A stretch of DNA of 61,107 nucleotides from a virus (IMGVR_UViG_3300043429_000621:1-61107); one strand, 5' to 3'; numbered from the stretch's first letter, positions 13,630-60,774 are shown. Notes: generated by a model from the sequence alone, not told the origin. A program made the numbers and translations.

Positions 13630-13636
13630 GATCATC

Positions 13637-15179: not shown

Positions 15180-17892
15180 TGCGATCTCCTTGGGGGTTGG
15201 ATTGGCGGTCAGTATACTGCGAAGTGAGCGCCAATGCACGGTCCATGTGTCCCTGCCCACGGACGGGCTTCTTGGTGTCCACATGCTTCAGCCACTTCTT
15301 GAACTCCGGCATCGACATCCGCACGACGGCCTTCTGGCGTTCCGGCCCCCTGCCGTCCGAGAAGCCGTCGCAGTACGCCTTGCAGGCGGCCTCGCGCGTC
15401 CGGTAGCCCAGCATGACCTTGTGTTCGTCGAACGCGCCGGTCTTCAGGTCGTGCTGGTCGATGATGAAGACATGGTCGCTTTCGTGGTCCGGACCGATGC
15501 AGACATCGACATGATCGCCGTCCGCGCCCTCGGTGCGCTTGATGTAGCCGTAATCGTACGGCAGCTTGACCGACCACTTCTTGCCGTCGGGATCGGTGCC
15601 GGACCGCACCTGCCCCTTGATGCTCTCCAGCGAGATCGGTAGGCCTTGGAAGCTGATGTGGCGCTTCTGGTAGTTGCCCGCCTTCTTCTGTGCCTCCGTG
15701 GGGTTCGGCAGCACCGCGCCGCCATCCATGAAGCCGTAGCGGCTCTGGCGCTCCGCCCCGCGTCCGACGCTCTCGATCCAGCGCTCGTTGATCGGCTGCA
15801 GCTGCTTCTGCTCCTCAAACATCTTGCGCGCCGTGGAGCGGCCCAGCGGGTCGGCGGAGTAGGGGTGGACCACCTCGCCCTTCTTGGTGGGTTTCTGCAG
15901 CAACTGGGCCGCGACGTCCGGCATGACGTACTGGCGCTGCAGCAACGGCACATCGGCGACATACTTGCCAGCCGAGGCGTCGGTGTAGGTGGAGTGCCGG
16001 AAGCTTTTCTCCTCGGCGCGGTGGGCGTCGGGATCGAATTCGACAATGCGATGGCCAAGCATGTTGCTGGGAACATCACGCACATCCGGATCGGTGATCG
16101 CCACGCGGGTCATACCGACATGCGGGAAGCCACGGTCGCGCCAGTAGCTTTTGTCGATCATGTTCACAACACCGGCGCGGTGCTTGCCAGGCAGCTTGCG
16201 GGCGAACTCCGAAGCCTTCTTGGCGTTCAGGATGCCAGGCCAGTTCTCCATCGCTGTCGCGCCGTTCTGCCGTTCGGCGATTGGCATGTGCATGCCTGCG
16301 CGCAACGCGGCGTCGAACTCGGCGGCGTCTTCCTTGCTGATCGCATCCTTGTCGATCTGGGCCATGACGGCGTCGAACATGTTGTGCGAACTGTCAACCG
16401 CCTGCGGCCCCATGGGGGCATAGATGCCATAGACCGGCCCGCGCTTGGCTGCCTCCCTGATCTTCTTGTTGAAGCCGGTGGTGTGGGCAGCGCTGTTGGC
16501 CCAGACTGCCCCCCTGTTCGGCTCCAGCATGTATTTCGGGCCAGCATGCAGGTCCACCGGCCAGTTCAGCTTCTTGCCGTTGATGTGGGTCAGCCTGCCA
16601 AGGTTCGACCGGTCGCCTCCGACGTTGATCAGGGTGCCGCCCTTGATCTTCTGGTAGACTTGCTCCCAGTCCATCGGGTTGCGCGTCAGCGGTTTGACGT
16701 CTGGAATGTCCGTTATGGTCGCCTTGATGTCTTTGGGGGCGATAGGCTGCTTGACGTTGTAGTAGCTGCCGGTTCCAGTCTCGCCCGCCGTCTTGGTCTT
16801 AAGGGTCGATGCGATCCGCAGCGCCTCCTGCACCTTGGATGGGTCTTCCGAAAATGGCGAATGGATGCGTTGGATCGCCTTTTGCACCTCCGGATGCTCA
16901 ATGGCGGCGTTCGGCATGCCGATTTCGGCCAGAATGCGCGCCAGCGGGTGGTCCAGAACCGATCCGCCATCCGCATAGCCGATCCGACCGCCGTCTGCGG
17001 CATGCCGCATGGCATTTATGACGTCGTCGTGGGTGGTTTCCTCGTTTCCGGCCTTGTCCCAGATCGCGTGGTGGGTCAGGTGCTGGCGGAACGGCTCCAG
17101 ATCGGGGTCCATGCGCGGGTTCAGGGCCGCCTGACGCGCCGCAAGCCGGTCCACGGCGGCATAACCGGCCTTGGCCATCGGCTTTTTGGCCTCGGAAGTC
17201 GGTTTTCCGGTCTGCAGGATGACCTGACGGGCGTCCAGTGTCGGCTGGTCGCCGCGACCAAGCATCGAGGCGACGAAACCAGCCTTTGCGGTGCCGATCC
17301 CGCGCAGGTCTTTGGCGAAAGCGCGCCATTCGTCGGGGTGCGACTGCCCTGTCAGAGCGCGCGCGACCATGTCGGACACCTCTTTGTGGCGCGGACCGAG
17401 GTGGGTGACCGCCCACGGCAGCGCATCCGTCTCCGCGTTCAGGCCGAAGGGCTTCATGACCTGCTGGGCGTGGGCCACGGCCTCTTCATCCACCTTGCCG
17501 CGCTCCGCCATGTCGAGGTAGCGCTGCCCCATCTTGGTGTGCAGCCACTCGCCCATCGCGCCTTCGGGGCGGATCATGCCGCCGGTCTGCGGCAGATCGA
17601 GGCCAGCGGCCCTGACCTTGTCCACGTTCTGGGCGCGGCGCTGGATCGAGGCGCGGGTGATGACGTAGGCCTTGATCAGGTCGCGCGGGGTCAGGCCGCC
17701 CTTGGCCGCGCGGCGCGCGGTTTCGTCCATGAAAGCGCCGAACTTCTCGACATGACTGGGGATTTCCGGCAAGCCGCCCAACTGCTCCTGTACCTTGCGA
17801 AGGGGCTGCCAGTCCCAGCCCTCCATCTTCGGGTGTGGGGCGTCTTGGTAGCCCGACACCAGATCGAGCGCGCGTTTGACGGTGTCGGCCAT
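15169..17892 (-). CDS. Polyvalent protein: HhH-GPD glycosylase-like + unknown domain + InPase-like domain
   Basis: LRGIGTAKAGFVASMLGRGDQPTLDARQ; C-terminal PTEAQKKAGNY...YGYIKRTEGADGDHVDV...DQ...FDEHKVMLG. Confidence 0.75.
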   Translation of the reverse strand: MADTVKRALDLVSGYQDAPHPKMEGWDWQPLRKVQEQLGGLPEIPSHVEKFGAFMDETARRAAKGGLTPRDLIKAYVITRASIQRRAQNVDKVRAAGLDLPQTGGMIRPEGAMGEWLHTKMGQRYLDMAERGKVDEEAVAHAQQVMKPFGLNAETDALPWAVTHLGPRHKEVSDMVARALTGQSHPDEWRAFAKDLRGIGTAKAGFVASMLGRGDQPTLDARQVILQTGKPTSEAKKPMAKAGYAAVDRLAARQAALNPRMDPDLEPFRQHLTHHAIWDKAGNEETTHDDVINAMRHAADGGRIGYADGGSVLDHPLARILAEIGMPNAAIEHPEVQKAIQRIHSPFSEDPSKVQEALRIASTLKTKTAGETGTGSYYNVKQPIAPKDIKATITDIPDVKPLTRNPMDWEQVYQKIKGGTLINVGGDRSNLGRLTHINGKKLNWPVDLHAGPKYMLEPNRGAVWANSAAHTTGFNKKIREAAKRGPVYGIYAPMGPQAVDSSHNMFDAVMAQIDKDAISKEDAAEFDAALRAGMHMPIAERQNGATAMENWPGILNAKKASEFARKLPGKHRAGVVNMIDKSYWRDRGFPHVGMTRVAITDPDVRDVPSNMLGHRIVEFDPDAHRAEEKSFRHSTYTDASAGKYVADVPLLQRQYVMPDVAAQLLQKPTKKGEVVHPYSADPLGRSTARKMFEEQKQLQPINERWIESVGRGAERQSRYGFMDGGAVLPNPTEAQKKAGNYQKRHISFQGLPISLESIKGQVRSGTDPDGKKWSVKLPYDYGYIKRTEGADGDHVDVCIGPDHESDHVFIIDQHDLKTGAFDEHKVMLGYRTREAACKAYCDGFSDGRGPERQKAVVRMSMPEFKKWLKHVDTKKPVRGQGHMDRALALTSQYTDRQSNPQGDRNGR

Positions 17893-17903
17893 GCCTGTCT
17901 CCG

Positions 17904-19739
17904 CTAGGGTTTGAGGCGCATCATAGCACCGGCACCATCTTTGGTGAAGCGGCGCGTGACGGCCAGCGCCCTGTCGACTTTTCCGCCGCGCCGGAAGGCC
18001 GGAAAGCCCTTGTCGAGGACGCTCTGCTTCAGCTGGTCGGTCATCGGCAGGTGGAAGCCCTGATAACCCTCCGGCAGCTGAACCGGCTCGGCGGGCTGGA
18101 TCGACGGATCGTGCTGGCGCGCAAGGTTCATGACGCTTTTTGGCACGATGTTGTCGTAATAGCCCTTCATGCCTTGGCCGCCGACCTTCATGTCGTCGCC
18201 CTGCAGCATGTGGTAGGTCGATCCGTCGAACTCGCTGGTGCGCGCGCTGCTGGGGTGCAGCAGCTTCTCCGACAGTTCCTTCCCGATCAGGCTGGGCAGG
18301 TCTTCCGGATCGACGTCCGGCTTGGCGATGCGTGTGCTGTTTCCCTGCAGCGCAGACAGGGTGCGGTCTTGCGGCCAGTACTTGATGCTGTCCACCTGCT
18401 TCTCCAGCCCGTATCGGTCGGCCTGCGCCTGCCCAGGCGTGAAGACGATGCCGTCATAATTGCCCAGCGCCGCCTCGCGCAGCACGTTCTTCAGCGCCAG
18501 ATCGGTCCAGTGCTGGGTGTTGGTGACGTAGGGGCCGGTAGGCACCTTGCCTTGCTGGTCGATGGTCGCGTCGCGCAGGGCATTCAGCTTGTCTTCCTCG
18601 CCGTGAAACTTGGCCAGATGCCACGGCTCCGCGTTTTCATAGAGCGGGCGGGCAACTTCCTCACGCATGCCCTGATCCAGCAGGCTCTGCCGCATGCGGC
18701 CCCGCATGTCCTCGATGTGGTCCCTGTAGGCCTTCATGGCCGACCCGTCGTTGAACCCCTTGTCGCGGCCCTCCTGCGCCCAGTCGGACTGCAGTTCCTC
18801 GACATGCAGCAGGCGCTTGCCGAGGCCCTTCTTGCCGGTGAACTCGTTCTGCCAGCCCTTGATCTGGGTCAGCGTCGCTGCCTCCTCCGGCGTGATCAGG
18901 CCGTTCTGGACGGCGTACTTGGCCGCGCCGGAACCGAGATCGGCGGGGGTCGTTCCCATGTGATCGGCGATCTTCTGCATCACCGGCATCACCCACTGCT
19001 TGGCCTCGGCAAAGCTGCTGGTGGGGCCGACCTCCCGATCCGACAGCCGGATGTGGGCCAGCACGTTTGGGTGGCCCGACCAGTGGCTGGACTGGTAGGC
19101 GGGGGGCTGTGTGCGCTCCGGCATGGTCGCCAGCTTCCGCCGGAACTCGTTGGCCTGCTCTTCGAACTGCTGTCGTCTGGGGTGACCCTCCGGCCACGCG
19201 CTGGCCATCACTTCGGCCTTGCGCATGGCGTCCTCGTAGGGCTGGCGCAGGTCTTTCGGGCGGTCCAGCTTCAGCAGGCGCTCACGGTAGTTCTTGCCGC
19301 CGGACAGGACATAGTCCCCGTATTCGGTGTCCAGCGGCTCCTCCGCGCCGGTGTCCTCGTCCTCGCGCGTCTGAACGTTCGGGGAGGCGGACACGCGGCG
19401 CTGCAGCCGATCTGCCTCGGCGCGCTCCTCCGGCGTCAACTCCTCGCCGCGATGCGAACGGTTCTGCAGCGCGATCCGCCGCTGGTTCTCGTCGCGCGAC
19501 AGGTAGTTCGGGTTCTCGCCATACTGGTCGATGCGCAGCTTCGGCAGGTTCCGCTCGAAATGCTGCGCCAGTTCTTCGCGGGTGATCTTGCCGGTCGGCG
19601 GCTTGGCATGCGCCAGTTCCGCATCCTTCACGCCCGCCTTCTTGGCGGCGGCGATCATCTGCTCTGCCGTGCCGCGCTCCTGCGGGAACTGGCGGATCAG
19701 CTGGGCTGCCTTGGAATAGAGGCCGGTCTTCGGGTTCAT
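17904..19739 (-). CDS. Large polyvalent-type internal virion protein with SHW...EELQSDW domain
   Basis: NYRERLL, SHWS..PNVLAHIR..DR, VEELQSDWAQ, W.DLALK, GMKGYYD. Confidence 0.65.
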   Translation of the reverse strand: MNPKTGLYSKAAQLIRQFPQERGTAEQMIAAAKKAGVKDAELAHAKPPTGKITREELAQHFERNLPKLRIDQYGENPNYLSRDENQRRIALQNRSHRGEELTPEERAEADRLQRRVSASPNVQTREDEDTGAEEPLDTEYGDYVLSGGKNYRERLLKLDRPKDLRQPYEDAMRKAEVMASAWPEGHPRRQQFEEQANEFRRKLATMPERTQPPAYQSSHWSGHPNVLAHIRLSDREVGPTSSFAEAKQWVMPVMQKIADHMGTTPADLGSGAAKYAVQNGLITPEEAATLTQIKGWQNEFTGKKGLGKRLLHVEELQSDWAQEGRDKGFNDGSAMKAYRDHIEDMRGRMRQSLLDQGMREEVARPLYENAEPWHLAKFHGEEDKLNALRDATIDQQGKVPTGPYVTNTQHWTDLALKNVLREAALGNYDGIVFTPGQAQADRYGLEKQVDSIKYWPQDRTLSALQGNSTRIAKPDVDPEDLPSLIGKELSEKLLHPSSARTSEFDGSTYHMLQGDDMKVGGQGMKGYYDNIVPKSVMNLARQHDPSIQPAEPVQLPEGYQGFHLPMTDQLKQSVLDKGFPAFRRGGKVDRALAVTRRFTKDGAGAMMRLKP

Positions 19740-21646
19740 GTGGTCCTCCGGATCGCAGCCATCGCTGCATCGTACGCTGCACCGCCCGACGCCCGCCGGA
19801 TGCGCGGATCGGTCGGGTCAAAGACCTCGGCCTCCTTGTGCTTGATCGCGTTGGGCTTGAACACGACCACCTCGGTGATCTGGTGCGGGCGTTTGCCGGA
19901 GTGGTCCTTGGTCTTGACCAGTACGCCGTCGTGGCCGCGCTCTTGCATGTGCTGCATGAACTGGTCCATGTCGCGCCCTTCGATAATGTGGTGCGGTTCC
20001 AGCTTGCCCTGTCCCGTCATCAGGCCCATGGACTGTAGGTCGCGCAGGGTGCGGTGGGCGGCGTTGTCTGACGAGGTGTCCCAGATGTATGGGTTCTTCA
20101 GCGCCGCATGCAGCGGGCCGATGACCGTGCCCTCGCCGATCATGTCGGGATCGGCATAGGCGTCGGCCAGTCCCTCTTCCGGTGTCAGGTAATGCCCGCG
20201 CCCGCGCCAGCCGTGATCTGTGTTGCTGCCGATCTTGGCGTCATCGAAGGCCTCAAACTCTTCCGGATGCGGGGTGCCGTGCCAGAGGTCCATCGGCTTG
20301 CCGTCGTCGCCCAGCAGGTCTTCGTGCATGCCCTCGAACATGGCAGGGACCGCGCCCCCAGCGGCAAAGGCCTGACGGCGCGGCAGGTCGGCAGTGCCGG
20401 CGGCGGCGTTGATCTGCTTCACCTCGTCATCGGACAACACGCGGTTGACCTTCATGTGGCCGCCGATCAGCCAGTTGCCGGTCATGTTCGGGTTGGTCTT
20501 GTAGCGGTAGAACCCGCCCAGTGGCACCTGATCGGTGATGTGCGCCTTCACGCCCTTGCCACGGCTGTCGGCCACGCTCTGCCAGTCCTTGTCAGCGGCC
20601 ATCTCGATCTCGGCCCAGACCTGATCGTCGGGCCGGTAGTCTGGCTTCTTCAGATCGGGGCTGGACTTGCCGCCAATATGGGTCGCGATGGGCAGGTCGC
20701 CAGCATGCCAGCCTGGCCGGTAGGCCAGATCGCCCAGCTTGGACTTGACCTTGCCCGCCGTCTTGCCCTGCGGCCCCTCTTCCGCTTCCAGCCACTGGCC
20801 TATCGGCACCGGCTTGTCGGCATGTACGAAAAGCGGCATCAGCTGGGCGCCTTTGCGCCGGAACAGCTTGTAGGCCTTCACGGTGCGCTGCGGGGTGTAG
20901 CCGCCCGCGACCGCGCCGCCGTCGGCGTAGCCGTACCTCTGGTTTGCCCAGTCCCGCGCCCAGTCTGGGATGCTGTCGCGGCTGTAGGACGGCCCCCACG
21001 CGCGCGGGTCGGCGACGTCGAAGTGCAGGGCGTTGTCGTAAAAGCCGATGCCACGAAACCCAGCCTCCCACGCCGCATCGGCCAGTCTCAGCCGGTCCTC
21101 GTAGGACAGGCCGGAGGCGTCGATGTCATAGGCGTTGCCGTGCATGTGCTGGCTGCCCTTGGCCCCACCAACTTCCTCGTTGCGCTTCGGGTCGCGGTAG
21201 GCCGAGTTCACGGTCAGCGGCTGGCCCCACGCATCGGTCAGGCGGCCCCACGCCGCCAGCGCGGCCTCGGACATGCCGCCATGGTCGGCGCTGGGCGCGG
21301 GCTGGGGCGCGGGCGCAGATGCCTTCTCCTCCTCCTTGCCAAAGAGGCCGGTGGCAGTGTCGCCGATCTTGTTGGCCGCGCCCGCGAGGCCCGCCAGCGC
21401 CTCCAGCGCGGTCGGCTGGGCCGATCCGGTCTGCAGCGGTGCGGCAGTCGCAAGGCGGCGCGGCACCGGCAGGTTGGCGGCGGGGACATAGCCGCCGGAA
21501 GCATGCGCCTGACGCGGGACATCGGGCAGATATTTCGACGGGGCGATCTGGCCACCGGCGCGGTCCTTCGCCTCTTTGGCCCTGCGTTTGTCCAGCAGCG
21601 CGCCAAGGGTCAGCTTGGCCGCGCGGATCGCCTTGTCGTCGCTCAT
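19736..21646 (-). CDS. Polyvalent protein: M15 peptidase + unknown (ART-like?) domain + ADP-ribosyltransferase (ART-PolyVal-like)
   Basis: SAYR...N..VGGA.GSQH.HGNAYDI...GIGFY...LHFD; DGKP..LWHGT...GRGHYLT...LKNPY...GHDGV...EVVVF.P..IK. Confidence 0.78.
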   Translation of the reverse strand: MSDDKAIRAAKLTLGALLDKRRAKEAKDRAGGQIAPSKYLPDVPRQAHASGGYVPAANLPVPRRLATAAPLQTGSAQPTALEALAGLAGAANKIGDTATGLFGKEEEKASAPAPQPAPSADHGGMSEAALAAWGRLTDAWGQPLTVNSAYRDPKRNEEVGGAKGSQHMHGNAYDIDASGLSYEDRLRLADAAWEAGFRGIGFYDNALHFDVADPRAWGPSYSRDSIPDWARDWANQRYGYADGGAVAGGYTPQRTVKAYKLFRRKGAQLMPLFVHADKPVPIGQWLEAEEGPQGKTAGKVKSKLGDLAYRPGWHAGDLPIATHIGGKSSPDLKKPDYRPDDQVWAEIEMAADKDWQSVADSRGKGVKAHITDQVPLGGFYRYKTNPNMTGNWLIGGHMKVNRVLSDDEVKQINAAAGTADLPRRQAFAAGGAVPAMFEGMHEDLLGDDGKPMDLWHGTPHPEEFEAFDDAKIGSNTDHGWRGRGHYLTPEEGLADAYADPDMIGEGTVIGPLHAALKNPYIWDTSSDNAAHRTLRDLQSMGLMTGQGKLEPHHIIEGRDMDQFMQHMQERGHDGVLVKTKDHSGKRPHQITEVVVFKPNAIKHKEAEVFDPTDPRIRRASGGAAYDAAMAAIRRTT

Positions 21647-24472: not shown

Positions 24473-25100
24473 GGATATTCTCCAACATTTCTGCGGCCTT
24501 TCTCAGCCATTCAGGATTGTCGCGGAATGCACCAAGACCCCTGTTGCAGTGCGCGCACAGAATGAAACGCACTTTTCCACTCTTATGACAGTGGTCAGTG
24601 TTCCATCCGGCTTTTGCGTTTGGATGGTCAGAACCACATATCGCGCAGCGGCAGCCCTGCGCCTCAAACATAGCCAGCCACTCCTCCGGCGTCATCCCGT
24701 AGTTGGCTTTGAGCCTCGCCTTGCGCTTGAAGCTGGGGTCGGCGGCATGACGCGCTTTTGCATATTTTCGACCGCGCTCCCTCACCTTTTCAAGGTTGTT
24801 TTGGTAATACCGAAGTGCCTTTTCGCGGTTTCGCGCCAGCCGCTCCTCCTCGCTCATTCTTGGCCTTACCTTACGGCCATCGACCCAATCAGGATCGCGC
24901 CGCTCCCTCCTCCGCTCCACCGTTCTGGCGGTGTGACACGAAACACATGCGGAAAGGTGGCCAGTCTTCATGCGCTCGTTCCTATAAAAACCGCACTCCG
25001 GACCAGCTACACCGCACAGCCTGCATGTCGAAGCAGAATAAACCCTAGCCGAAGATAGCTGGGGTTGGGTCAGTGCTTTGCCCTTGGTACTTTCCGACAT
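24465..25100 (-). CDS. Endonuclease VII-family (homing-type) endonuclease
   Basis: YGMT.EEW..M...Q...CAIC...DHCH.SGKVR..LC..CNRGLG.F.D; N-terminal CxxC pair; start uncertain. Confidence 0.82.
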   Translation of the reverse strand: MSESTKGKALTQPQLSSARVYSASTCRLCGVAGPECGFYRNERMKTGHLSACVSCHTARTVERRRERRDPDWVDGRKVRPRMSEEERLARNREKALRYYQNNLEKVRERGRKYAKARHAADPSFKRKARLKANYGMTPEEWLAMFEAQGCRCAICGSDHPNAKAGWNTDHCHKSGKVRFILCAHCNRGLGAFRDNPEWLRKAAEMLENIHG

Positions 25101-25542
25101 ATTCCGCCTTGCACTCCGTACGATGGAAAACCACTTGAGCGATCCCGCTACCGGCGGGAATGTGAAGAGGTTTAAACCCATGATACACAAGTTCAAGGGT
25201 AAGTCCACCTTTGAAACCGTTTTCAATGACCGTATTAAAAACGGAAAGACCCTGTCTTGCCCATGTCGACTTGTCATGCACGATGCCCACCAGATCGTAG
25301 GGCATGTCGAACTCCTCCATGGCCGAGGCGATGACGAAGGTCGAGGGGTGATGCCGCCCGTCGACATAGGTCTCAGGGAACTGCATAGCCACGTTCGGCG
25401 GGTGAAACAGCACCTCCTGCTTGATGCGGATGTCGTAGCCCGCTTCCGACAGGCCGTGGCTGGTCAGGTGGCCGCGCACCTTGCGGTCCAGCATGCCCTT
25501 GATCGGCCCCGCCTGCAGCAGGGCGCGTCCGTTGACGATCAT
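25045..25542 (-). CDS. dcd: dCTP deaminase
   Basis: GLS.AGYDIR, HDKSTWARQG, NTVIE.GFKG.LTLEL, IAQVVF, Y.GKYQGQ. Confidence 0.85.
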   Translation of the reverse strand: MIVNGRALLQAGPIKGMLDRKVRGHLTSHGLSEAGYDIRIKQEVLFHPPNVAMQFPETYVDGRHHPSTFVIASAMEEFDMPYDLVGIVHDKSTWARQGLSVFNTVIENGFKGGLTLELVYHGFKPLHIPAGSGIAQVVFHRTECKAEYVGKYQGQSTDPTPAIFG

Positions 25543-52400: not shown

Positions 52401-55400
52401 TTACGGCTGTGACGGAGGGGCAAAAGTCCCATCCGGCCTCTTGGTGTACCCGCGCCTCAACAGTTCCGCCTCCGCCGAGGCGGGGTCGATGGCCTCTCCA
52501 GCGAAGCGCGGCATGCGGGCATAGCTGTCGTCGACATACTGCTGGAACCGCTTCCCGCCATCGGCGAACGCCTTCTGATAGGAGAAGATGTCTGTGCCGT
52601 GGATCGCGGGGTCGTAGCTGTTGTAGAGGTCCATCTTGTAGCGGGCCTCGGCCTCGGCGATGGCCAGAAGCTTCTTGATTGCCTCCGGCTGCATGTCTGG
52701 GCCAGGCGTGATGGTCTGCAGAAACTCGATGGAGGCCGCAGGTGCGCCGCCAGGCAAGGCTGACAAGCGCGCTGACATGATTTCGCCGGTCCCCTTCAGC
52801 GCGATCTGGTACTGCGCGGGGTCGGTCAGATCGTACGACTGCCAGCCGGTCATGTTGTTCGGGTCGATGGCGGACAAAAGCGCGCCAGCCTGCGCGCCGA
52901 GGCCTGCCAGCGATCCCGCCTCCATCTTCTGGTACACGCCCTTCATCTGGGCGATGGCCGAAATTTGCCGAGCCGAGGCATCCATCACCTCAGGCGCTTC
53001 AGCGCGGAAAGCTGCAGTGGCTTCTCGGTTTGCAGCAGCTTGGGCCTGCGTGTCGCCCACGGAGACGTAGCCTGGTATCTGGAACTGTTCGCCAGTCCGC
53101 GCATCCACGGTCATGCCGCCGCTGGCGTTGATCTCGTCCAGTCGTGCCTTGGCGGCCTGCACCTGACGCCCAATCGGCGTGTCGGGTCCGTAGAAGTTGT
53201 TGTCCTGAATGAACCGTTGCAGGGAGACCGGATCATCCTGCATGCGGACGGTGCGGCCTCCGATGTCCACGCTGCCGTTTTGGAACGTACGATAATCCAG
53301 CTTCTCCAAGCCGGTCTCAGTGGTTGGGGTATATGCGCCCGACAGGATGTCCTGCGCCGTTGCCGTTTCAGGAAACTGCAGGGTAATGCCGTTCATGCGG
53401 GCGTACTGGGCGGGGGTCAGGTTGGTGCCGTTCAGTTCGTTCCACTGCATCGTGTCCATGGCCACGGCGCGCATGTTTTCGAGGTTCTTGGCCCCGATGT
53501 CCGCGCGGCGCTGCTCCAGTGCGCTGTAGGTGTTGGCGAAGCCGCCAAGGCCCTGCAGGATGGCAGAACCGAGATACAGCGACGGCGAGGACGCCATGGT
53601 GCCGAGGCCGGACAGGGCCGACAGGACGAAGTCCTTGTTCAGGCGACCATCCTTGTCATAGGCCATCTGGCCGAGGCGGCTGCGCTCCTCGTAGGGCTTG
53701 TCCGAGGTCAGCATGCCCGCGCCAAGGCCGCGCTCGTCACGCGCAGCCGGTGCGCCGCCACCCACGCCCGCACCGCCAGAGGGGACGCCACCAGCGGTGG
53801 ACAGGACGTAGTTTTGGGTCTCTTCGGGCAGATAATCGAGGTAGTTGCCGCCCAGCGCCGTGGCGCGGTCCAGTGCGGAAGACAGCGCGCTCGGCCCCGC
53901 ATTGTAGGCAGCCGCCGCCTTGTCGAGGCTGCCGAAGCGCCGATACTGCTCAAGGAAGTAGGCCTCACCGATAGCAGCATTGTACTCCGGATCGTTGAGC
54001 CAGCGGTCGCGGTCCCACTCCAGTCCGGCCAGTTTGGCCGCTTCCGGACCGGTGGCCTCCATGACCTGACCGATCCCGACCGCGCCCTTGGGCGACGTCA
54101 GGGGATTTCCGTTCTCGTCAAACTGGCGATACCCGCTTTCCTGCTTCAGGATTTGGGTGCGGTAGAAGGTCGAGGGATCGGCTCCGGCGACGCCAGTGGG
54201 CGCGCGAGGTGCGGGCGACTGCCCAACCGTTCCGTCCGCAACTCCGCCCGCCAGAGGGGTCGGCTGTCCTGCGGCAGGGACTACCGGCGGCCCCTGAACC
54301 TCCGGCGCGGGAACCAATCCCGCCGGACGGGGTTGGGGACGCGGGGAGGTTGCCATGGGCGGCACATCCTGCGGAACAGGAGGCATCTCAACAGCAGACA
54401 AGCCGGTGCCAGCGGTCATCGGCATCGGCGTCGGAGCGGGGCGCTCCGGCGGCACGACACCGCCAGCGGGAACTGGCGCGGGCGAGGCTTCTGTTGCGTT
54501 GAAGCGGTCCCGCGCAGCCTGCGGCATGTTCCCTTCTGCGGCAGCTGCCAGAAGTTCGGCAGCCGTCATGCGGCGCTCTTCCTCCGGTGCGCCGCCGTCA
54601 GCATAGGCAGGCCGCACAAGGCCGCCCTGATAGAACTTGTGCGCTTGGCTGTAGTCGACGCGCTTCATGCCGTCGGGGCCGGTCATCACGGCGTTCGGAT
54701 GGCGATCTTCCACCTCGTCTGCCATGAAGCCGATATGGGTCTGTTCGCGGTCGTCGCCCTTGTACTTGAAGCTGTAGATCGGCAGGCCGTGATCCGTACG
54801 ACCGATGCGGCGGATGTCGTGCTTCATCCGGCGGTCGGAGAAGATCGTCGAACCCAGTTTGATGATGCTGGCAATCGAGCCTGCGGCGTCGCCGATCTGC
54901 CCCAAGGTGCTTTGCGGTGCGCTTGGCGTACCCCCGCTGGGGGTCATGACGCCCTTGTCTTTCTCGTCCTCCTGCGCCTTCAGGGTGTCGGAAAGGTAGG
55001 TCTCGCGCCCGACAGGCTGGTCAAGCTTGTCTTTTTGCAGGTAGGCAGCGCCACCGGTGGCGCGGGCGACGCCCCCACGGTAATTGGGGTTGCGGTCGAA
55101 GATGTCCCAGAAGTCCCCGCCTTTGCCGAAGGTTTCCTTCAGGTTGACCATGTTCTCACCGAAGCGGGATGCCGCATCCAGTTGTTGCGCCAGATTGCGC
55201 TGCGAGTTGTCGAGGCCAGCGCTGTCTGCCACCATCAGTTCGCCGACCGGCAGGACGGCCTGCGGCACATACCCAGCGCCATAGGGGTTCTCGGAGCCGA
55301 AAGACGCGCCGTACGGACCGGCGACGCCGCCGCCGTTGGCCTTGGTGGCGCGGTCGTAGTCCACGGTCTTGTAGCCGCCGGAAACGCCAACGGCCTCCGG

Positions 55401-56369
55401 CTTAACCTCTTCCACCTCGTCTGCCATGAAGCCGATATGGGTCTGGTGGCTATCGTCGCCCTTGTACTTGAACTTGTAGATCGGCAGGCCGTCGTCGGTG
55501 TGACCAATCCGGCGCACATCCTCCTTCAGGCGGCGATCCGAGAAGAACGGCGCGGGCTGCGTCGTGGTCGTGGTCGATCCGGACAGCGCGCCGGTCCCCA
55601 TGGCGATGTTCGCAAGGAACTGCGCGACTTGGAACGGGTAGGCCTGCTGCTGCATGAACTGGTTGTAGAGTGCCGACAGGCCAGCCTGTTCGGTCTGCTG
55701 GCCTAGCGTTCCGGCGTTGATCATCGCCTCGCCGCCCTGAATTCCGGCCTGCTGCGCCGCCTGACCGAGGCCCGCGTAGAACTGGCCGCCCTGCATCAGG
55801 CGGGCAAGATCGGCCTGTGTCGCGCCCAGCTGGACGCCCTGCTGCTGCTGGGCGGCCTCCAGTGCCTGCTGGTAGTTCTGGGCGTTCAGCCCAGCCAGCG
55901 TGGACCCCATGGCAAGGCCCTGCTGGTTGGCAAGGTTGGCCGCCGCGATGCCAGCGCGGTCTCCGCCAAAGGCCCCAGACGAAATCGCGGTCCCCAGCGC
56001 GCCAGACTGGGCCTGCTCGTTCGCCTGACCCATCTGGCGCATGGTCGCGTCGATGACTTGGCTTTGGTAGGGGTTCAGGAACCGCTCGATGTCGAGGTTT
56101 TGCGGCTGGGCCGACTGCATGCCTTGCGCGAAGGTCGGGGCTGCCCGATCAAAATAAGGCTGGTACGCCCCCGCTGCGCTGTTGATCCGGTCAATCCCCG
56201 CGCCCTGCTGTGCGTTCAGCTGGGCTACGAAGTCAGACGGGTTGGTCGAGTAAATCTGAAATGGCGTACCCGCCACCCCCTCCGCGCGCGCATTGACGGC
56301 CCTGTATCGCGCCATGACCTCCGGCGGGATCGTTACCTTCTGCGTCGTGGTAGAGGATTTGCCGCCCAT
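52401..56369 (-). CDS. Large ejection protein with two internal peptidase-S74 domains and a lytic transglycosylase domain
   Basis: Q/A/G-rich N-terminus (GAFGGDR); SDRRLK...GFMADEVE...VDY twice; QESG...GAVGIGQVM...AAYNAGP...ETQNYV. Confidence 0.85.
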   Translation of the reverse strand: MGGKSSTTTQKVTIPPEVMARYRAVNARAEGVAGTPFQIYSTNPSDFVAQLNAQQGAGIDRINSAAGAYQPYFDRAAPTFAQGMQSAQPQNLDIERFLNPYQSQVIDATMRQMGQANEQAQSGALGTAISSGAFGGDRAGIAAANLANQQGLAMGSTLAGLNAQNYQQALEAAQQQQGVQLGATQADLARLMQGGQFYAGLGQAAQQAGIQGGEAMINAGTLGQQTEQAGLSALYNQFMQQQAYPFQVAQFLANIAMGTGALSGSTTTTTQPAPFFSDRRLKEDVRRIGHTDDGLPIYKFKYKGDDSHQTHIGFMADEVEEVKPEAVGVSGGYKTVDYDRATKANGGGVAGPYGASFGSENPYGAGYVPQAVLPVGELMVADSAGLDNSQRNLAQQLDAASRFGENMVNLKETFGKGGDFWDIFDRNPNYRGGVARATGGAAYLQKDKLDQPVGRETYLSDTLKAQEDEKDKGVMTPSGGTPSAPQSTLGQIGDAAGSIASIIKLGSTIFSDRRMKHDIRRIGRTDHGLPIYSFKYKGDDREQTHIGFMADEVEDRHPNAVMTGPDGMKRVDYSQAHKFYQGGLVRPAYADGGAPEEERRMTAAELLAAAAEGNMPQAARDRFNATEASPAPVPAGGVVPPERPAPTPMPMTAGTGLSAVEMPPVPQDVPPMATSPRPQPRPAGLVPAPEVQGPPVVPAAGQPTPLAGGVADGTVGQSPAPRAPTGVAGADPSTFYRTQILKQESGYRQFDENGNPLTSPKGAVGIGQVMEATGPEAAKLAGLEWDRDRWLNDPEYNAAIGEAYFLEQYRRFGSLDKAAAAYNAGPSALSSALDRATALGGNYLDYLPEETQNYVLSTAGGVPSGGAGVGGGAPAARDERGLGAGMLTSDKPYEERSRLGQMAYDKDGRLNKDFVLSALSGLGTMASSPSLYLGSAILQGLGGFANTYSALEQRRADIGAKNLENMRAVAMDTMQWNELNGTNLTPAQYARMNGITLQFPETATAQDILSGAYTPTTETGLEKLDYRTFQNGSVDIGGRTVRMQDDPVSLQRFIQDNNFYGPDTPIGRQVQAAKARLDEINASGGMTVDARTGEQFQIPGYVSVGDTQAQAAANREATAAFRAEAPEVMDASARQISAIAQMKGVYQKMEAGSLAGLGAQAGALLSAIDPNNMTGWQSYDLTDPAQYQIALKGTGEIMSARLSALPGGAPAASIEFLQTITPGPDMQPEAIKKLLAIAEAEARYKMDLYNSYDPAIHGTDIFSYQKAFADGGKRFQQYVDDSYARMPRFAGEAIDPASAEAELLRRGYTKRPDGTFAPPSQP
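54651..55541 (-). repeat. Internal duplication of the S74 coding unit (about 55356-55541 and 54651-54839)
   Basis: Near-identical DNA blocks, e.g. TTCCACCTCGTCTGCCATGAAGCCGATATGGGTCTG in both copies. Confidence 0.85.
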
Positions 56370-56866
56370 CAGGAGCCTCCTTCAGCCCCGTCGGAGAGGC
56401 CTGTTTTTGCGCCGTAGAGGAAGTATACACCAGCCGGTGCGCCGAAGACACGCTCATAAAGCCGGATTTTCGCCTCCGTACGAGACGAAGAAAGAACCCC
56501 GATAGCCAGCGGGAGTTCAAGCGCGTTCGCCGTCATCTTTGCAAACTCGGCCAGTTTCCTCGCCCTTCCACCTTTCGCCGCCCTGTATTCTGGGTCAACG
56601 AAGATTGCTTTTTCTTCCAGTATCAGTTCCTTGCTGTACCACATCTCGCCCATGGATAGAAGGACCATGCCCTCCAGCTTTCCACCCACGGGTCCGATCA
56701 CGCCGCAAATGCCGGTCTGCCGCGTCAGCGAACCCCAGATCGTCAGGGCCAGCTTTTCGATGTCAGGGGCCACCACTGCGTTCTCGCGCGTCGCCGCCAA
56801 AGAGATGTCCATCATCCCGTTGAAATCCGCCTCGACGCCCGTGCGAACAACCACATCATCCATCAT
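56369..56866 (-). CDS. GNAT-fold acetyltransferase-like protein
   Basis: IFVDPEYRAAKGG.A.KL...A...LYERVFG. Confidence 0.65.
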   Translation of the reverse strand: MMDDVVVRTGVEADFNGMMDISLAATRENAVVAPDIEKLALTIWGSLTRQTGICGVIGPVGGKLEGMVLLSMGEMWYSKELILEEKAIFVDPEYRAAKGGRARKLAEFAKMTANALELPLAIGVLSSSRTEAKIRLYERVFGAPAGVYFLYGAKTGLSDGAEGGS

Positions 56867-56867
56867 G

Positions 56868-57377
56868 CTAATCTTTCTTTGGACCCGGCAGGGATTGCAG
56901 GGTTCTGATGGTCTTTTTTCGCATCTTTTTCACGAAAGCATCAAGGATTTTGTGTCCGTCCTCCATAGAGCCACCACCGATATGGACGACCTCCTCCGGA
57001 GAGATGACGTACTCTCCGCCCGCCGCAACGATGGGGACTGCATCCGTTTCGCCGCCCGCCGCCTTGTGCGGCGCGGGCTGGCCGTAGGGCATTTCACCGC
57101 CGCCGTAGGGCATCGTGCTGGTGCTGTGATCGTACGGACCCTTGATCGAGAAGATCGACTGCGCGACCTTGAAGCCCGCCATCGAGTTCCCCTCGCCCAT
57201 GGCCGAGATGATGTCGGCGGGGATGACGTAGGAGCCGGAGGCGACATGCATCGGCAGGTGGTCTGTGCGGCCTGCCACGGTGGAGTGGATCGGCCCCTTG
57301 TGAACCTTGGTCTTCTTCTTCGGGCGCGGCCCCTTTGCGGCGTCGACGGCCTGCTGGATGACGGGATCGGTGTCCAT
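56868..57377 (-). CDS. Protein of two tandem TD..P.....G[SE]YVI modules
   Basis: GRTDHLPMHVASGSYVIPADIISAMGEGNSMAG and GETDAVPIVAAGGEYVISPEEVVHIGGGSMEDG. Confidence 0.75.
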   Translation of the reverse strand: MDTDPVIQQAVDAAKGPRPKKKTKVHKGPIHSTVAGRTDHLPMHVASGSYVIPADIISAMGEGNSMAGFKVAQSIFSIKGPYDHSTSTMPYGGGEMPYGQPAPHKAAGGETDAVPIVAAGGEYVISPEEVVHIGGGSMEDGHKILDAFVKKMRKKTIRTLQSLPGPKKD

Positions 57378-57385
57378 GCTGCGCC

Positions 57386-57727
57386 TCACGAATAGCTGAT
57401 GGCGATGGTCTGGCCGGTGCCAGGCGCGACCACGATGCCGTTGTTGACAGGAAGGTTGATCTCGGTGACCCCGACCGTGGTCGGCAGGACCGCGATCTGG
57501 TTGGTCGTGGACGAGGCGGTGGTGGCGTCATAGATCGCCCCCGCCGCGCTGCCAGCGACCACCACCGAGACGCGGGCCACACGGCCCTGACCGGCCTGCA
57601 CCAAGGTCGCTGCGGTGATGCCGGACGCCATCTTCGCGCCCTCGACCTGCAGGTAGGTCTGCCCCAGCTGGTTCAGCGCCGTGACGATGTTCTTGGAGGC
57701 GGTCAGGATGTCGGTCAGAGAAGCCAT
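57386..57727 (-). CDS. Small virion protein
   Basis: Helical N-terminus plus a beta domain; TGATG-coupled to the nozzle gene. Confidence 0.6.
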   Translation of the reverse strand: MASLTDILTASKNIVTALNQLGQTYLQVEGAKMASGITAATLVQAGQGRVARVSVVVAGSAAGAIYDATTASSTTNQIAVLPTTVGVTEINLPVNNGIVVAPGTGQTIAISYS

Positions 57728-60021
57728 CAGAATTTCCCGTCGGACTGGAGGCGGTAGCGGATGTTGCCCAAGCGCCAGAACGAGCCTGTGTCGTTGCTCT
57801 CGATGCGGATCGACACAAGGCGGCCCCGCAGGCGCGGCGTGATGTAGGTCGTGGCCTCCGTCACCGTATAGGGGCCATGAACGCGCGGCGTCTGGCTAGG
57901 ATAATCGGCGACGTAGAAGGTGATCATGACGTTGGCCCCTTGGGAGCCGCCGTAATAACCCCACTTCATGTCCGGCCAAACCTGATCAACGAAGACTTTC
58001 ACATCCCCGTCTTCCAGCGCGAACCAGCCGGTCTGGACGTAGGCGTTGATCGGCTGGCCGTCCGCATCTGTCGAGGTTTCGTGCTGGTAGATCACGTTGT
58101 CCCCGCCAGCGCCTATGGGTGCGCCGAGAACCGACTGGTCGATCCATGCGGTGCGCGTCAGGGTTCCGAAGTCCCAGCTGCCGGTCTGGGGGCTGAACTT
58201 GACGTATTTGGTCGGGATGCCGCCGGAACCGATGGTCGGATAGTACCAGATGACCTCCCCGAAACGGGCGTTCGTGGCGCAGCGGATGCGCTCGACGTAA
58301 TCCATGTCGATATCTTGGAAGATCACATCCCAGACGGGGCAGGTGATCGTCTGAACCCCGCCGCCGGACAGGGAGAAGAACTGGCTTTGCGACATCCAGT
58401 ACACCTCGCCGTTCAGCGTCGCCGCAGCGCGCCGCCCGATCAGGCCACAGCCGGTGCCGATCTCGTTGAAGGACCAGACCAGCGGCAGGTTGATGTACTG
58501 CATCGACCAAATGCCGATGTCGGTCCACAGCAAGCCCTGCTGCGGACCCTGCAGGCCGCCCACGATGCGAGACCCCTTCGGAATACGGAACGAGCCAGCC
58601 TGATTGGTGACCGTTCCAATCCAAGAGGTGAAATTGGCGATGTCGCACCAGCGGACCAGAAGCGGGTCTTGGATGCCGGTGAAGGTCGAGCCGTAGGCGA
58701 TGATCTGGCGCTCCGGCATGGCCACGAAGCAGCCTTCATTTACCGTCGGGGCGTTGGGAACCACCACCGCATACGTTCCGCCATCCGACGGGTTCCAGTA
58801 ATAGATTTCGCCACCCTCTGGGTTTGCAATCAGGTATTCGCCCCAGTTGTCCAGAGACCAGTCGGTTGTGCCGCCGAAAGCCCAGACGTTCACGCTCAGC
58901 GTTCCGGCGACGGTCTGCGCCGTCAGGGTGGACGGCACGGTAAAGCTGACCGTGGACGTCGCTCCACTGGTGTAGGCGGACACGGTCCATGTGCCGTTGT
59001 AGCCGGACGGCGTCACCCCAGACACGGTGATCTGAGACCCGACCCGAACGGCATATTCTCCGGAGAAGCTGACCGTGGCGGTCGTGCCGGTGCAGGTGGC
59101 GTTCGTCGTCGCAAAGGTCCGTCCACCCGCCGCCGTGACGCCAGTACCGTAGCCGCCCGCACCATACCCGCCCGCGCCGTACCCCGTGGAAGGTGGCAGG
59201 GACGTTTGCCCGACGTAATAGGTGATCTGCGGCTTTCCGCCGTTTATGGAAACGGTGGCAGCGCTGGTCGCGCTGTTCTCAGCCGCGATCACGAAGACGC
59301 TGGCGGTTGTGACCGACTGGACGAGGTAGTTGCCGTAGAGGGTGATGCCGCCAACCGTCGTGGGGACGAGGACGGGGAAGGTGGAACCTACGGAGTACCC
59401 GTGGTTGGCCAAGGTTACAGAGACCGAGGAGGAGCCGCTCGTCGTGGTGAACGAAGCCACGGCACCGCCCGCTGCGACGGTGGACGTTGCAAGCGCAGGA
59501 AGCCCGATGGCGTTCTTGGCAAAGACCGAGTAGCGGTTGGATGTCGCGGCTTCGCAGGTGTAAAACCCGAACAGAACCAAGCCGCCGACGGACACATGCG
59601 TCGCCAGAAAGATGCTGTCGAAGCTGGAAACGTTCGACCCCGTGTCGTCGATTTCAACCTCGCTCTGCCCGCTCGTCGTGTTGAACGAAAGGGTGGGGCT
59701 GGCGACGTATTTCTGCGGAGACCGCGCGGACAACTGGCGGGACGCCACGGTCGCCCCTTCGATGGTGTAGAGGCCGTTCTCACTGCCGATGCCGAGATAG
59801 GCATTGGAGTTGGTGTCAGCCCAAGCCCAAAGCGCGCGCACCACCGCCGTCATGGGCTGATTGAAGTACCGCGTCCAGCCGCCTATTTTCTGCGGCAGCG
59901 CGAGGCCCTGCCGGTCCGGCACAAAGCGGATCAGGTTGCTGTCGGAGATAGCCGCTTCGTTCAGCGCCGGAGTGCGGTTCTGATCGACGCCTGGCACCAG
60001 CTTGAGGGAGGCGTGAGGCAT
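57727..60021 (-). CDS. Tail nozzle / head-closure protein (P22 gp10 / tubular B-like) with inserted beta domains
   Basis: PQKIGGW, WSLDNWGE.L, DPLLVRWCD, LLWTD, F.EV.W.YP, RTAW.D, RLRGR, WRLG..R. Confidence 0.75.
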   Translation of the reverse strand: MPHASLKLVPGVDQNRTPALNEAAISDSNLIRFVPDRQGLALPQKIGGWTRYFNQPMTAVVRALWAWADTNSNAYLGIGSENGLYTIEGATVASRQLSARSPQKYVASPTLSFNTTSGQSEVEIDDTGSNVSSFDSIFLATHVSVGGLVLFGFYTCEAATSNRYSVFAKNAIGLPALATSTVAAGGAVASFTTTSGSSSVSVTLANHGYSVGSTFPVLVPTTVGGITLYGNYLVQSVTTASVFVIAAENSATSAATVSINGGKPQITYYVGQTSLPPSTGYGAGGYGAGGYGTGVTAAGGRTFATTNATCTGTTATVSFSGEYAVRVGSQITVSGVTPSGYNGTWTVSAYTSGATSTVSFTVPSTLTAQTVAGTLSVNVWAFGGTTDWSLDNWGEYLIANPEGGEIYYWNPSDGGTYAVVVPNAPTVNEGCFVAMPERQIIAYGSTFTGIQDPLLVRWCDIANFTSWIGTVTNQAGSFRIPKGSRIVGGLQGPQQGLLWTDIGIWSMQYINLPLVWSFNEIGTGCGLIGRRAAATLNGEVYWMSQSQFFSLSGGGVQTITCPVWDVIFQDIDMDYVERIRCATNARFGEVIWYYPTIGSGGIPTKYVKFSPQTGSWDFGTLTRTAWIDQSVLGAPIGAGGDNVIYQHETSTDADGQPINAYVQTGWFALEDGDVKVFVDQVWPDMKWGYYGGSQGANVMITFYVADYPSQTPRVHGPYTVTEATTYITPRLRGRLVSIRIESNDTGSFWRLGNIRYRLQSDGKF

Positions 60022-60024
60022 ATC

Positions 60025-60774
60025 TTACCCCCGCGTCGGCGATGCGATGGGCGCGGGCGACTGCGACGACCAGCCTGCGCTTTCGAACTTCTTCCGCATC
60101 TCCTCGACCGACGCACCCTTCAGCAGGGCTTGGTATTGGCTCTCGTAGGACTGCGCCATCTGCGGGTCGTCCGACTGCCGCCCGAAGTTCCGCTGGTAGG
60201 CCGAGATGTAGACCATGGACGCCATGATCAGCAAATCAGGCAGGTACTGGCTGATGAAGGTTGTCGGGTTGACAGCCGACATGGCGTTCGGGCGGTAAGT
60301 GCCGACCACCTCGACATAGTAGGTCTGGTCGGGGACCGGACCCACGAAGAACAGGTTCTCGTTGAACGGCGCGAAGTATTGCGGCTGCCCCCTGCTGGCC
60401 ACGGCATTCGACCCGTACACCATGTCGAGGAATTCCTTGGTGGTCGGCAGCAGGGTGACGCGTTGGGCAGACCCTTCATCCGGATTGGTTTCACCGGCAG
60501 GCAGGATCAGGTTCAGCTGCTCGGTGACCACGATGGTGCCGGAGCCGTCCGGCAGCGTCATCGGGAAGTCCAGATTGCGGTTGCCCGCGTCCAGCTTGAT
60601 CGACGGGCCATGGAACGCCGTCGAGGTGTTCATCAGGTCCAGATCGCGGTAAATGCGCAGCTCTGCGTAGTCGATCATGGCCGGAAGGATCGCCAAGAAG
60701 TTGACGTCGTCCGGAGCCACAACCGCCATCTCGGCGATCTGGGTCACATAGGTGTTGTAGGTCAATCCGGCCAC
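60025..60774 (-). CDS. Head-tail adaptor / tail tubular protein A-like
   Basis: I.YAE.RIYRDL, GQPQYFA, GPVPD..Y.VE, PDLL..AS, YE.QYQ. Confidence 0.72.
   Translation of the reverse strand: MAGLTYNTYVTQIAEMAVVAPDDVNFLAILPAMIDYAELRIYRDLDLMNTSTAFHGPSIKLDAGNRNLDFPMTLPDGSGTIVVTEQLNLILPAGETNPDEGSAQRVTLLPTTKEFLDMVYGSNAVASRGQPQYFAPFNENLFFVGPVPDQTYYVEVVGTYRPNAMSAVNPTTFISQYLPDLLIMASMVYISAYQRNFGRQSDDPQMAQSYESQYQALLKGASVEEMRKKFESAGWSSQSPAPIASPTRG

Follow-up and report, generated by a model that had tools for sequence, protein, structure and literature searches.

The virus genome IMGVR_UViG_3300043429_000621, a complete 61,107-bp record that has direct terminal repeats (analysed over its whole length and referred to below as the window), encodes at positions 56,868 to 57,377 a small protein with two tandem copies of a short module. 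The locus raises the question of what a module reminiscent of siphophage tape measure proteins might do as a separate gene at the head of the ejection-protein genes of a short-tailed phage. Tape measures pass through the tail channel and are released from the virion before the DNA. Our favoured answer, which is tentative and to which we give slightly less than an even chance, is that the protein would be virion-internal, with a tape-measure-like docking or delivery domain, and would be ejected together with the ejection proteins. We read it as virion-internal because of its homology to tape measures, the C-terminal position of the domain, the fusion of this domain to enzymes in relatives, its fixed slot between the genes for the nozzle and the internal virion protein, and its predicted fold.

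Two tandem modules in a small protein

The open reading frame (ORF) extends over 56868-57389 on the minus strand and, from the ATG at 57377, yields a protein of 169 amino acids (P0001), the stop codon occupying 56868-56870. GAGG is located 8 nucleotides upstream of this ATG, and homologues begin at the same position; the limits of the gene (56868-57377, stop codon included) are based on the ORF and its homologues. A first-pass annotation made from the sequence had described two repeats of one pattern in this protein, and both copies fit this pattern exactly, with four residues ahead of the last glycine in each. The repeats (residues 36-68 and 109-141) align without gaps and are identical at 12 of 33 positions. 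Comparison of the two corresponding sub-alignments from 51 family members (residues 22-72 and 100-150) with hhalign gave a probability of 93% and an E-value of 3.1e-7 over 42 columns, and the tandem repeat is thereby confirmed as real and above chance. Common to both repeats is the core motif G-x-[ST]-D-x-[VIL]-P ... G-E-[YF]-V ... G-x-G, in which repeat 1 carries serine in the place of glutamate.

Together with its upstream segment, the first copy comprises residues 26-68 (57174-57302, minus strand, as all features of this gene) and reads HKGPIHSTVAG followed by GRTDHLP...GSYVIP...G. The second copy (residues 104-141; 56955-57068) reads GETDAVP...GGEYVIS...G and is, as had been noticed before, immediately preceded by HKAAGG (residues 104-109). 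An A.GG motif thus lies within about 20 residues upstream of the module at repeat 2, and a divergent equivalent is found at repeat 1. A variable PYG- and glycine-rich linker with alignment gaps and insertions (residues 77-103; 57069-57149) separates the copies, and the protein ends with a terminal helix and a conserved ...LPGPKKD end (residues 142-169; 56871-56954). Twelve residues are invariant in 76 representatives of the family (G28, G36, R37, T38, D39, N64, G68, A119, G120, E122, G141 and D146); they include D39, E122 and D146, in agreement with the earlier remark on conserved Asp and Glu residues, which had been put forward as catalytic candidates.

Homology to the C-proximal module of tape measures

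The first-pass annotation had further pointed to a similar pattern near the processed C-terminus of tape measures. This pattern does exist, for example in the tape measures of Stenotrophomonas phage DLP_5, Arthrobacter phage TripleJ and Gordonia phage GordTnk2 and in lambda gpH. A search that used the last 162 residues of the DLP_5 tape measure as query retrieved 98 tape-measure-like proteins (containing PF10145, PF20155, PF06791 or SLT), and a profile of the module was built from 112 copies drawn from these 98 proteins only. The consensus is A.GG-x-I-x-GPGTGTSDSVP-I-x-ASNGEYV-x-x-A-x-x-V-x-KYG-x-x-F-L-D-x-x-N, and a further [FY]A.GG frequently comes after it. In hhalign comparisons with this profile, repeat 2 of the P0001 family matched with a probability of 95.9% (E 5.6e-9) and repeat 1 with 82% (E 1.1e-5). 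A hidden Markov model (HMM) of the tape measure module only, searched against the six frames of the 61-kb window, placed the ORF of P0001 at the top with both repeats (E 3.8e-6); the next match had an E-value of 0.23. Profile-profile comparison and six-frame search thus agree that the tape measure pattern is homologous to both repeats, and the homology of the module to the C-proximal module of tape measures is supported in both search directions.

The tape measure HMM also matches residues 753-799 of lambda gpH (E 4.2e-6 among 5 sequences) and a protein of the podophage Pag-Yong1 (E 7.5e-8), and it shows weak matches exactly at the A.GG sites of a 636-residue protein of this genome that is described below. 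Used as a single sequence against the family profile, lambda gpH gave a weak result (P 0.0099, 4% probability); the link to lambda rests on the match of the tape measure HMM and not on this comparison. A tblastn search with the C-terminal 69 residues of P0001 at E<=10 returned 14 tape measure records at E-values of 1-6, which singly are not significant, and 15 of the 51 family members showed a marginal match to the PHROG tape measure family phrog_934 (best E 0.069). Another 31 records from this tblastn search, annotated as mycobacteriophage esterases or lipases (E 2-10), were taken as chance matches.

P0001 and the tape measure module share the core, that is G-x-[ST]-D-x-[VIL]-P, about five residues, G-E-[YF]-V, a helix and G-x-G, and in both cases an A.GG motif lies just upstream and the position is close to the C-terminus. 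In tape measures, however, the module occurs in a single or few copies, usually 50-100 residues from the C-terminus, whereas here tandem copies end the protein, without a long helical ruler and in a short-tailed phage; moreover, the segment A.GG-x-I-x-GPG is replaced in repeat 1 by HKGPIHSTVAG. Taken as a whole, P0001 is not a tape measure: it comprises only 169 residues, it matches neither a Pfam family at E<=0.1 nor TIGR01541, and the portal, adaptor and nozzle of this genome are those of a podophage.

The tape measure module occurs in proteins with PF10145, PF20155 or PF06791, and its lambda copy is part of the gpHC fragment and falls within NCBIfam TIGR01541, which is specific for lambda and is the only NCBIfam model overlapping the module. 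Pfam has no family for the module, whether in the 51 family members scanned at E<=1, where five unrelated families were each found in one member, or in the C-termini of tape measures, and a literature search with the motif strings of the module found no paper. The DLP_5-type tape measures P0388-P0392 have a clear hydrophobic, transmembrane-like stretch whose end lies only a few residues upstream of the A.GG and the module, so that the module would sit beside a membrane-inserting segment.

Family and domain architecture

Homologues of P0001 are numerous (3358 of near-equal length and 1101 longer), and a profile search recovered 2899 representatives at 50% identity with E<=1e-3, 686 of them with E<=1e-30. 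This is a large family almost without cultured members: all homologues are named 'hypothetical protein' or 'uncharacterized protein', and only 2 of 50,697 GenBank phage records, both metagenome-assembled, match at E<=1e-3. The position of the domain is highly consistent. Of 386 proteins, 385 have no more than 5 residues between the end of the family match and the C-terminus, and in the representatives GGEYV lies 40-52 residues before the protein end. The inter-repeat spacing varies from 59 to 342 residues among the representatives, as the linker holds insertions of up to about 340 residues.

The first-pass annotation had described the protein as standalone, which is correct for this genome but does not hold for the family. 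The strict repeat-1 motif is present in 131 of 150 representatives (50% identity), and 77 of these 131 have at least 150 residues, and up to 1365, ahead of repeat 1. Among nine long relatives that were scanned, three contain an ART-PolyVal domain, one an SLT domain and one a NUDIX domain, and four are without a recognisable domain; PF18760 was found in 2 of the 120 longer homologues listed. P0001 thus represents a conserved C-terminal domain in its minimal, free form. This also places it with respect to the polyvalent proteins, which are predicted to be packaged in the head and injected, according to the part of the text of Iyer et al. 2017 (PMC5512222) available to us. P0001 itself has a single domain and not the two or more effector-type domains of such proteins, whereas relatives with the same C-terminal domain are multi-domain proteins of this kind through their ART-PolyVal, NUDIX and SLT fusions. 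Neither this domain nor Gly-Gly linkers are mentioned in the available text of that study, in which the words 'linker' and 'glycine' are absent.

Other parts of these proteins are conserved as well. A small N-terminal domain of the form MPLxxGxS...QA.AAAL..AR opens many relatives, among them P0023, P0038 and P0070, and 61 of 150 representatives, and it is probably through this domain that 21 of 51 family members match phrog_2423. Sometimes it is followed by a second short conserved piece (GLYANI.AKR.RI..G...MRKPG), and both pieces end in A.GG. Three BFVD proteins of uncultured phages (A0A6J7WQC2, A0A6J5PWS9 and A0A6J5S8K4; 533-680 residues) give matches that extend over the complete tandem-domain model, with an identity of about 20%, and repeat 1 is matched by positions 9-52 of the 678-position profile phrog_11341. 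Because of this profile match and the 533-680-residue BFVD proteins, a second architecture with the domain at the N-terminus may exist.

Predicted structure

An AlphaFold model based on a diverse alignment of 76 rows reached a mean predicted local distance difference test score (pLDDT) of 83.9 and a predicted template modelling score (pTM) of 0.70. A model based on 51 close homologues had a mean pLDDT of 57 and was for this reason left out of the fold searches. In the former model, each module is predicted to form a beta-hairpin and a helix (strands 44-46 and 50-52 and helix 54-60 in module 1; strands 113-115 and 123-125 and helix 127-133 in module 2), and further helices span residues 65-76 and 138-162. 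The domain would thus consist of two modules and a long terminal helix that leads into the ...LPGPKKD end. Module copy 1 (residues 26-68; pLDDT 84-97) and helix 138-162 (pLDDT 93-98) are predicted with high scores. The linker (residues 77-103; pLDDT 48-54) is of low confidence, with residues 89-96 below 50, and the block 101-110, which includes HKAAGG, has a mean of 54.

No counterpart of this model was found among known structures. Foldseek searches against the PDB gave none at E<=0.001 (17 rows, all with E-values of at least 3.3), the best Z from VIA-align, run against 48,161 chains, was 3.4, which is under the usual noise level, and a sequence search of the PDB with the family profile had a levansucrase as its best match (E 0.12). 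Matches in BFVD were solely to uncharacterised proteins of uncultured phages (4 at E<=0.001), and the ESM Atlas contributed only hypothetical viral clusters; the nearest named one, crAss_CARG1 (score 0.84), is graded by the tool as a lead only. A homotrimer prediction with three copies of P0001 (score 0.00, mark 0.42), run without controls, is neutral with respect to oligomerisation. The tandem domain is thus predicted with good confidence to form a compact fold without a solved counterpart and to fold alone.

Tape measures with this module are represented by entries for solved structures, namely Douge gp16 (module at 966-1019 and 1414-1469) and JBD30 gp46 (1021-1066). In the portions of the structural reports that could be consulted, however, only residues 1658-1699 of the Douge tape measure and the last 33 residues of that of JBD30 are built, and for lambda gpH only residues 818-849, the region of approximately 690-817 being not resolved (PMC12617516). 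As the built parts of these tape measures comprise no more than their last 32-42 residues or so, the module has not been seen structurally.

The order strand-helix-helix and the spacing of GEYV...KYG...L...N may resemble those of LysM domains. This would fit a role after ejection, in which the module binds peptidoglycan or another envelope component in the periplasm and thereby fixes the channel or a fused enzyme. Such an envelope anchor is also suggested by the hydrophobic stretch just before the module in the four closest DLP_5-group tape measures (P0388-P0391) and in P0392, by a hydrophobic stretch of lambda gpH about 30 residues upstream of the module, and by the muralytic domain that the T5 tape measure carries at the equivalent position, according to the consulted part of PMC10038345. 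Yet no LysM or other binding-domain family of Pfam was matched in 51 family members at E<=1 or in the C-termini of tape measures, and no fold match exceeded Z 3.4. LysM (PF01476) is likewise absent from the Pfam and fold matches, although small domains score low in fold searches. We consider an envelope anchor improbable.

Gene position and proposed role

The reading of P0001 as a virion-internal protein with a delivery domain draws further on its gene position. The first-pass annotation had placed the gene at the head of the ejection-protein genes, and the surrounding genes, all on the minus strand, agree with this. Upstream are the genes for an adaptor protein (60025-60774; PF24175 SU10_adaptor, E 1.4e-15), a nozzle-like virion protein of 764 residues (57727-60021; phrog_3287, E 2.7e-69) and a 113-residue ORF without family match, located between nozzle and P0001 (57386-57727). 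Downstream follow a GNAT-like ORF of 165 residues (56369-56866; phrog_1249 acetyltransferase, E 9.3e-5), which begins 1 nucleotide past the stop codon of P0001, and an internal virion protein of 1322 residues (52401-56369) with two Peptidase_S74 domains and an SLT domain.

Within the limits of their contigs, all 80 related IMG/VR loci show this order of adaptor, nozzle, 113-residue ORF (where present), P0001, GNAT and internal virion protein. Every one of the 80 loci has the nozzle, and 76 have the adaptor, the remaining four being cut by a contig end; the GNAT gene lies directly downstream of the P0001 gene in 78 loci, and the other two contigs end within 142 nucleotides of it. The 113-residue ORF was detected by tblastn in 61 of the 80 loci. 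Gene order is identical in MW202675.1, in which the homologue of the nozzle-like protein is annotated as 'phage stabilization protein'.

P0001 therefore occupies the same slot as the small internal proteins of T7 and SU10, after the nozzle and before the large internal proteins, and with SU10 this genome also shares the type of portal and adaptor. An alternative suggested by this slot is that P0001 helps to join the nozzle, tail channel and ejection proteins during assembly, as T7 gp7.3 and gp13 do, and is not delivered into the cell. The gene takes the position of T7 gp13/gp14 between nozzle and internal proteins, its synteny with tail genes is strict, and T7 gp7.3 is a small scaffold that helps the nozzle to assemble onto the adaptor (PMC11784390, as far as the accessible text goes). 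On the other hand, P0001 shows no similarity to T7 gp7.3 or gp13, the ART-PolyVal, NUDIX and SLT fusions of its relatives fit a delivered protein better, and the homology to the ejected tape measure points to delivery. We therefore regard an assembly factor as unlikely.

A counterpart of P0001 in another podophage is UMO76003.1 of Pag-Yong1 (294 residues; a Planktothrix/Synechococcus phage protein), which contains a homologous module (95% probability, E 2e-8 against the family) preceded by YAEGG. Its gene lies between needle-head genes and the gene of an S74-domain protein, in the order needle-head protein, hypothetical gene, module protein, S74 protein, and no GNAT is annotated there. The Pag-Yong1 protein differs from P0001 in its single module, in a Gly/Ala-rich hydrophobic N-terminal part and in having 24 residues past the match. 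Sister records of UMO76003.1 are annotated as 'extracellular solute-binding protein' or 'calcium-binding protein', and a literature search on Pag-Yong1, MinM2 and Pra-JY27 found no relevant paper.

If P0001 is indeed a virion-internal protein with a docking or delivery domain, its docking site may be the portal-nozzle channel or the immediate surroundings of this channel, or else the head of the ejection-protein stack, and the domain would be delivered together with the ejection proteins. In relatives it would then serve as a handle carrying the fused enzymes, and in this genome the free domain possibly works with the adjacent GNAT gene. Several observations weigh against this reading. A family HMM searched against T7 gp13-16, gp6.7 and gp7.3 and SU10 gp18-24 gave a best E-value of only 0.14. 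P0001 has no hydrophobic segment (maximum KD19 1.00, with no stretch at or above 1.6), unlike the ejection proteins of the T7 gp14 type, for which hydrophobic segments are described in the part of the review PMC8954989 that was available. The P0001 gene is the most conserved gene in 58 of 79 loci, a figure that is biased because the loci were picked by similarity to P0001 itself. The docking role of the module is an analogy, since the module is absent from the solved tape measure structures, and in lambda, JBD30 and Douge docking is performed by the terminal coiled coil and not by the module, as stated in the sections of these reports that were seen. The presence of P0001 in the virion, its location in the channel, its ejection and any partner it may have are what we infer from sequence and gene context.

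An internal protein of a podophage is a known kind of protein. The domain, its homology to tape measures and the motif syntax shared with them are new with respect to the literature searched: none of them was found there, in Pfam, in NCBIfam apart from the lambda-specific TIGR01541, or in the available part of the ejection-protein review PMC8954989. They link two classes that are usually kept apart: the tape measures of long-tailed phages share a homologous module and [FY]AxGG punctuation with the internal or polyvalent proteins of short-tailed ones. As the tandem form is modelled with confidence as folding alone, it would offer a handy route to the role of the tape measure module, including any part it may have in the cleavage of lambda gpH.

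Distribution of the [FY]A.GG motif

The first-pass annotation had proposed that AxGG motifs are spread over many cargo proteins, and these motifs are indeed enriched in the internal and polyvalent proteins of this phage and of its relatives. Six such proteins in the window contain 5 [FY]A.GG motifs in 4303 residues, compared to 1 in the remaining 13,630 residues (shuffle mean 0.38, maximum 3 in 200 shuffles); a broader pattern, picked after the data had been seen, gives 11 versus 1. In the internal proteins of the 80 related loci 107 motifs were observed, with a shuffle mean of 10.4 (maximum 19), whereas adaptor and nozzle of the same loci contain 6 motifs versus 6.3 expected and are not enriched. 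At least one motif is present in 46 of the 80 loci, many of which are truncated. Tape measures show the same tendency: 161 [FY]A.GG motifs were observed in the 98 proteins, with a shuffle mean of 8.4 (maximum 15). Over internal proteins and module-bearing tape measures, the enrichment is thus about 10-fold to 19-fold.

The motif is also associated with the module. In tape measures 98 of 112 modules have an x.GG motif no more than 22 residues upstream, and 88 of 112 have another ..GG motif within about 60 residues downstream; in the P0001 family A.GG is found 6-26 residues upstream of GGEYV in 98 of 126 representatives. The suggestion that motif-rich phages should carry the module agrees with the three phages checked: Pag-Yong1 has both the module and the motif (3 [FY]A.GG, shuffle mean 0.10), and T7 (whole genome) and SU10 (first 45 kb) lack the module as well as any [FY]A.GG in their internal proteins. 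Under our favoured reading of P0001 as a delivered internal protein, [FY]AxGG would represent the flexible N-terminal edge of the module, and its sequence may have been reused as linker punctuation between the domains of proteins that pass the channel.

The placement of the motifs within large proteins of this genome can be seen in two cases. The 636-residue polyvalent protein (19736-21646, minus strand), referred to as motif-rich in the first-pass annotation, comprises an M15 domain (residues 127-217), a phrog_30118 region (256-427) and an ART-PolyVal domain (447-604); of its A.GG motifs at residues 49, 241, 428 and 619, the second and third lie between domains, the last lies past the last domain and the first is near the N-terminus. 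In the 1322-residue internal virion protein, the S74 domains, which are of a self-cleaving intramolecular chaperone type, are located at approximately residues 277-340 and 508-579 and the SLT domain at 739-839. Each S74 domain has a motif of the A.GG type behind it, at residues 344 and 590, respectively; the protein probably cleaves itself into pieces by means of these S74 domains. The GNAT-like ORF also contains an A.GG, which lies in a glycine-rich stretch that we assume to resemble an acetyl-CoA-binding loop and is probably unrelated to the motif.

Cleavage of tape measures and possible cleavage of cargo

The function originally suggested for P0001 is that of a reader of [FY]AxGG segments, which the module would bind in cis within tape measures and in trans in this phage, either cleaving nearby or gathering cargo at the portal. 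The joint occurrence of module and motif in all three phages checked agrees with it. Some of what is reported on tape measure cleavage fits a reader or protease of this kind. A cut within the glycine-rich region of lambda gpH yields a fragment of about 14 kDa, the protease and the site being unknown according to the part of PMC12617516 that was consulted. We computed that such a fragment would start near residues 710-720. In gpH, three overlapping A.GG motifs occupy residues 710-725, followed by FATGG (736-740), GEFV (752) and YATGGYV (781-787), so that this A.GG run sits 20-30 residues upstream of the module, in the reported cleavage region. For JBD30, the authors propose, in the section of their report that was seen, a cleavage at residue 1066, which is the last residue of the module match (1021-1066). 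The x.GG and ..GG motifs near most tape measure modules and the invariance of D39, E122 and D146 would also be compatible with this proposal.

Other observations speak against it. P0001 shows no likeness to any peptidase family or fold in searches of Pfam, NCBIfam, the PDB and fold libraries; in particular, no Pfam family was matched at E<=0.1 and no NCBIfam peptidase at all, although a new catalytic fold might escape such searches. In the predicted structure HKAAGG falls into the low-confidence linker and not into a strand of the fold. Both modules possess their own upstream segment in cis, so that nothing is left 'open' for a strand supplied in trans. The only mapped cut in a tape measure, that of T5, is located after R1127 and thus not at a Gly-Gly, according to the accessible part of PMC10038345. 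Furthermore, the 1322-residue protein already has self-cleaving S74 domains, and relatives carry the domain, as a rule, fused to cargo and not as a separate protein. The proposed complementation of a strand in trans, or cleavage of cargo, thus found no support, and a Gly-Gly reader or protease appears rather unlikely, a little more so than an assembly factor.

A related and more far-reaching idea is that the module and the A.GG punctuation together constitute a new self-contained processing element that directs the cleavage of proteins transiting the channel, with the free tandem of podophages acting in trans on polyvalent cargo. If true, this would account for the processing of lambda gpH to gpH* by a cut within the A.GG run upstream of the module, and the podophage tandem would process or marshal A.GG-punctuated polyvalent cargo in trans. 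We consider this to have a low probability. A possible likeness of IVAAGGE to the Ala-Gly self-cleavage site of LexA was dropped because tape measure modules lack Ala-Gly at that position.

Other proteases were also sought. No PHROG protease or Pfam peptidase match indicative of a head protease cutting at A.GG was obtained around the capsid gene, in scans of ten ORFs each, taken from the region between the polyvalent genes and the tail-fibre end. Zincin-like peptidases have been proposed to process polyvalent proteins (Iyer et al. 2017, PMC5512222, in the text available), and none was found among the proteins of the window that were scanned.

Other genes of the window

The portal of this genome belongs to PF23899 SU10_portal, and three large proteins of the polyvalent type come next (15169-21646, minus strand), of the kind described in the consulted part of Iyer et al. 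2017 (PMC5512222). Besides the 636-residue protein these are a protein of 611 residues without match and one of 907 residues with an InPase domain at 733-869. The GNAT-like ORF, for which Pfam GNAT matches stay below the curated cut-offs, represents an acetyltransferase-like gene fixed within the tail and ejection block; its product could be cargo or could modify a neighbour. In the head-gene region, a 131-residue ORF (13240-13635, minus strand) shows a weak likeness to GroES/Cpn10 (phrog_3188, E 1e-5; PF00166, E 6e-4, narrowly missing the cut-off). An ORF at 25045-25542 (minus strand), situated between the genes for portal and terminase, resembles dCTP deaminases and dUTPases (PF22769, E 4.5e-18).

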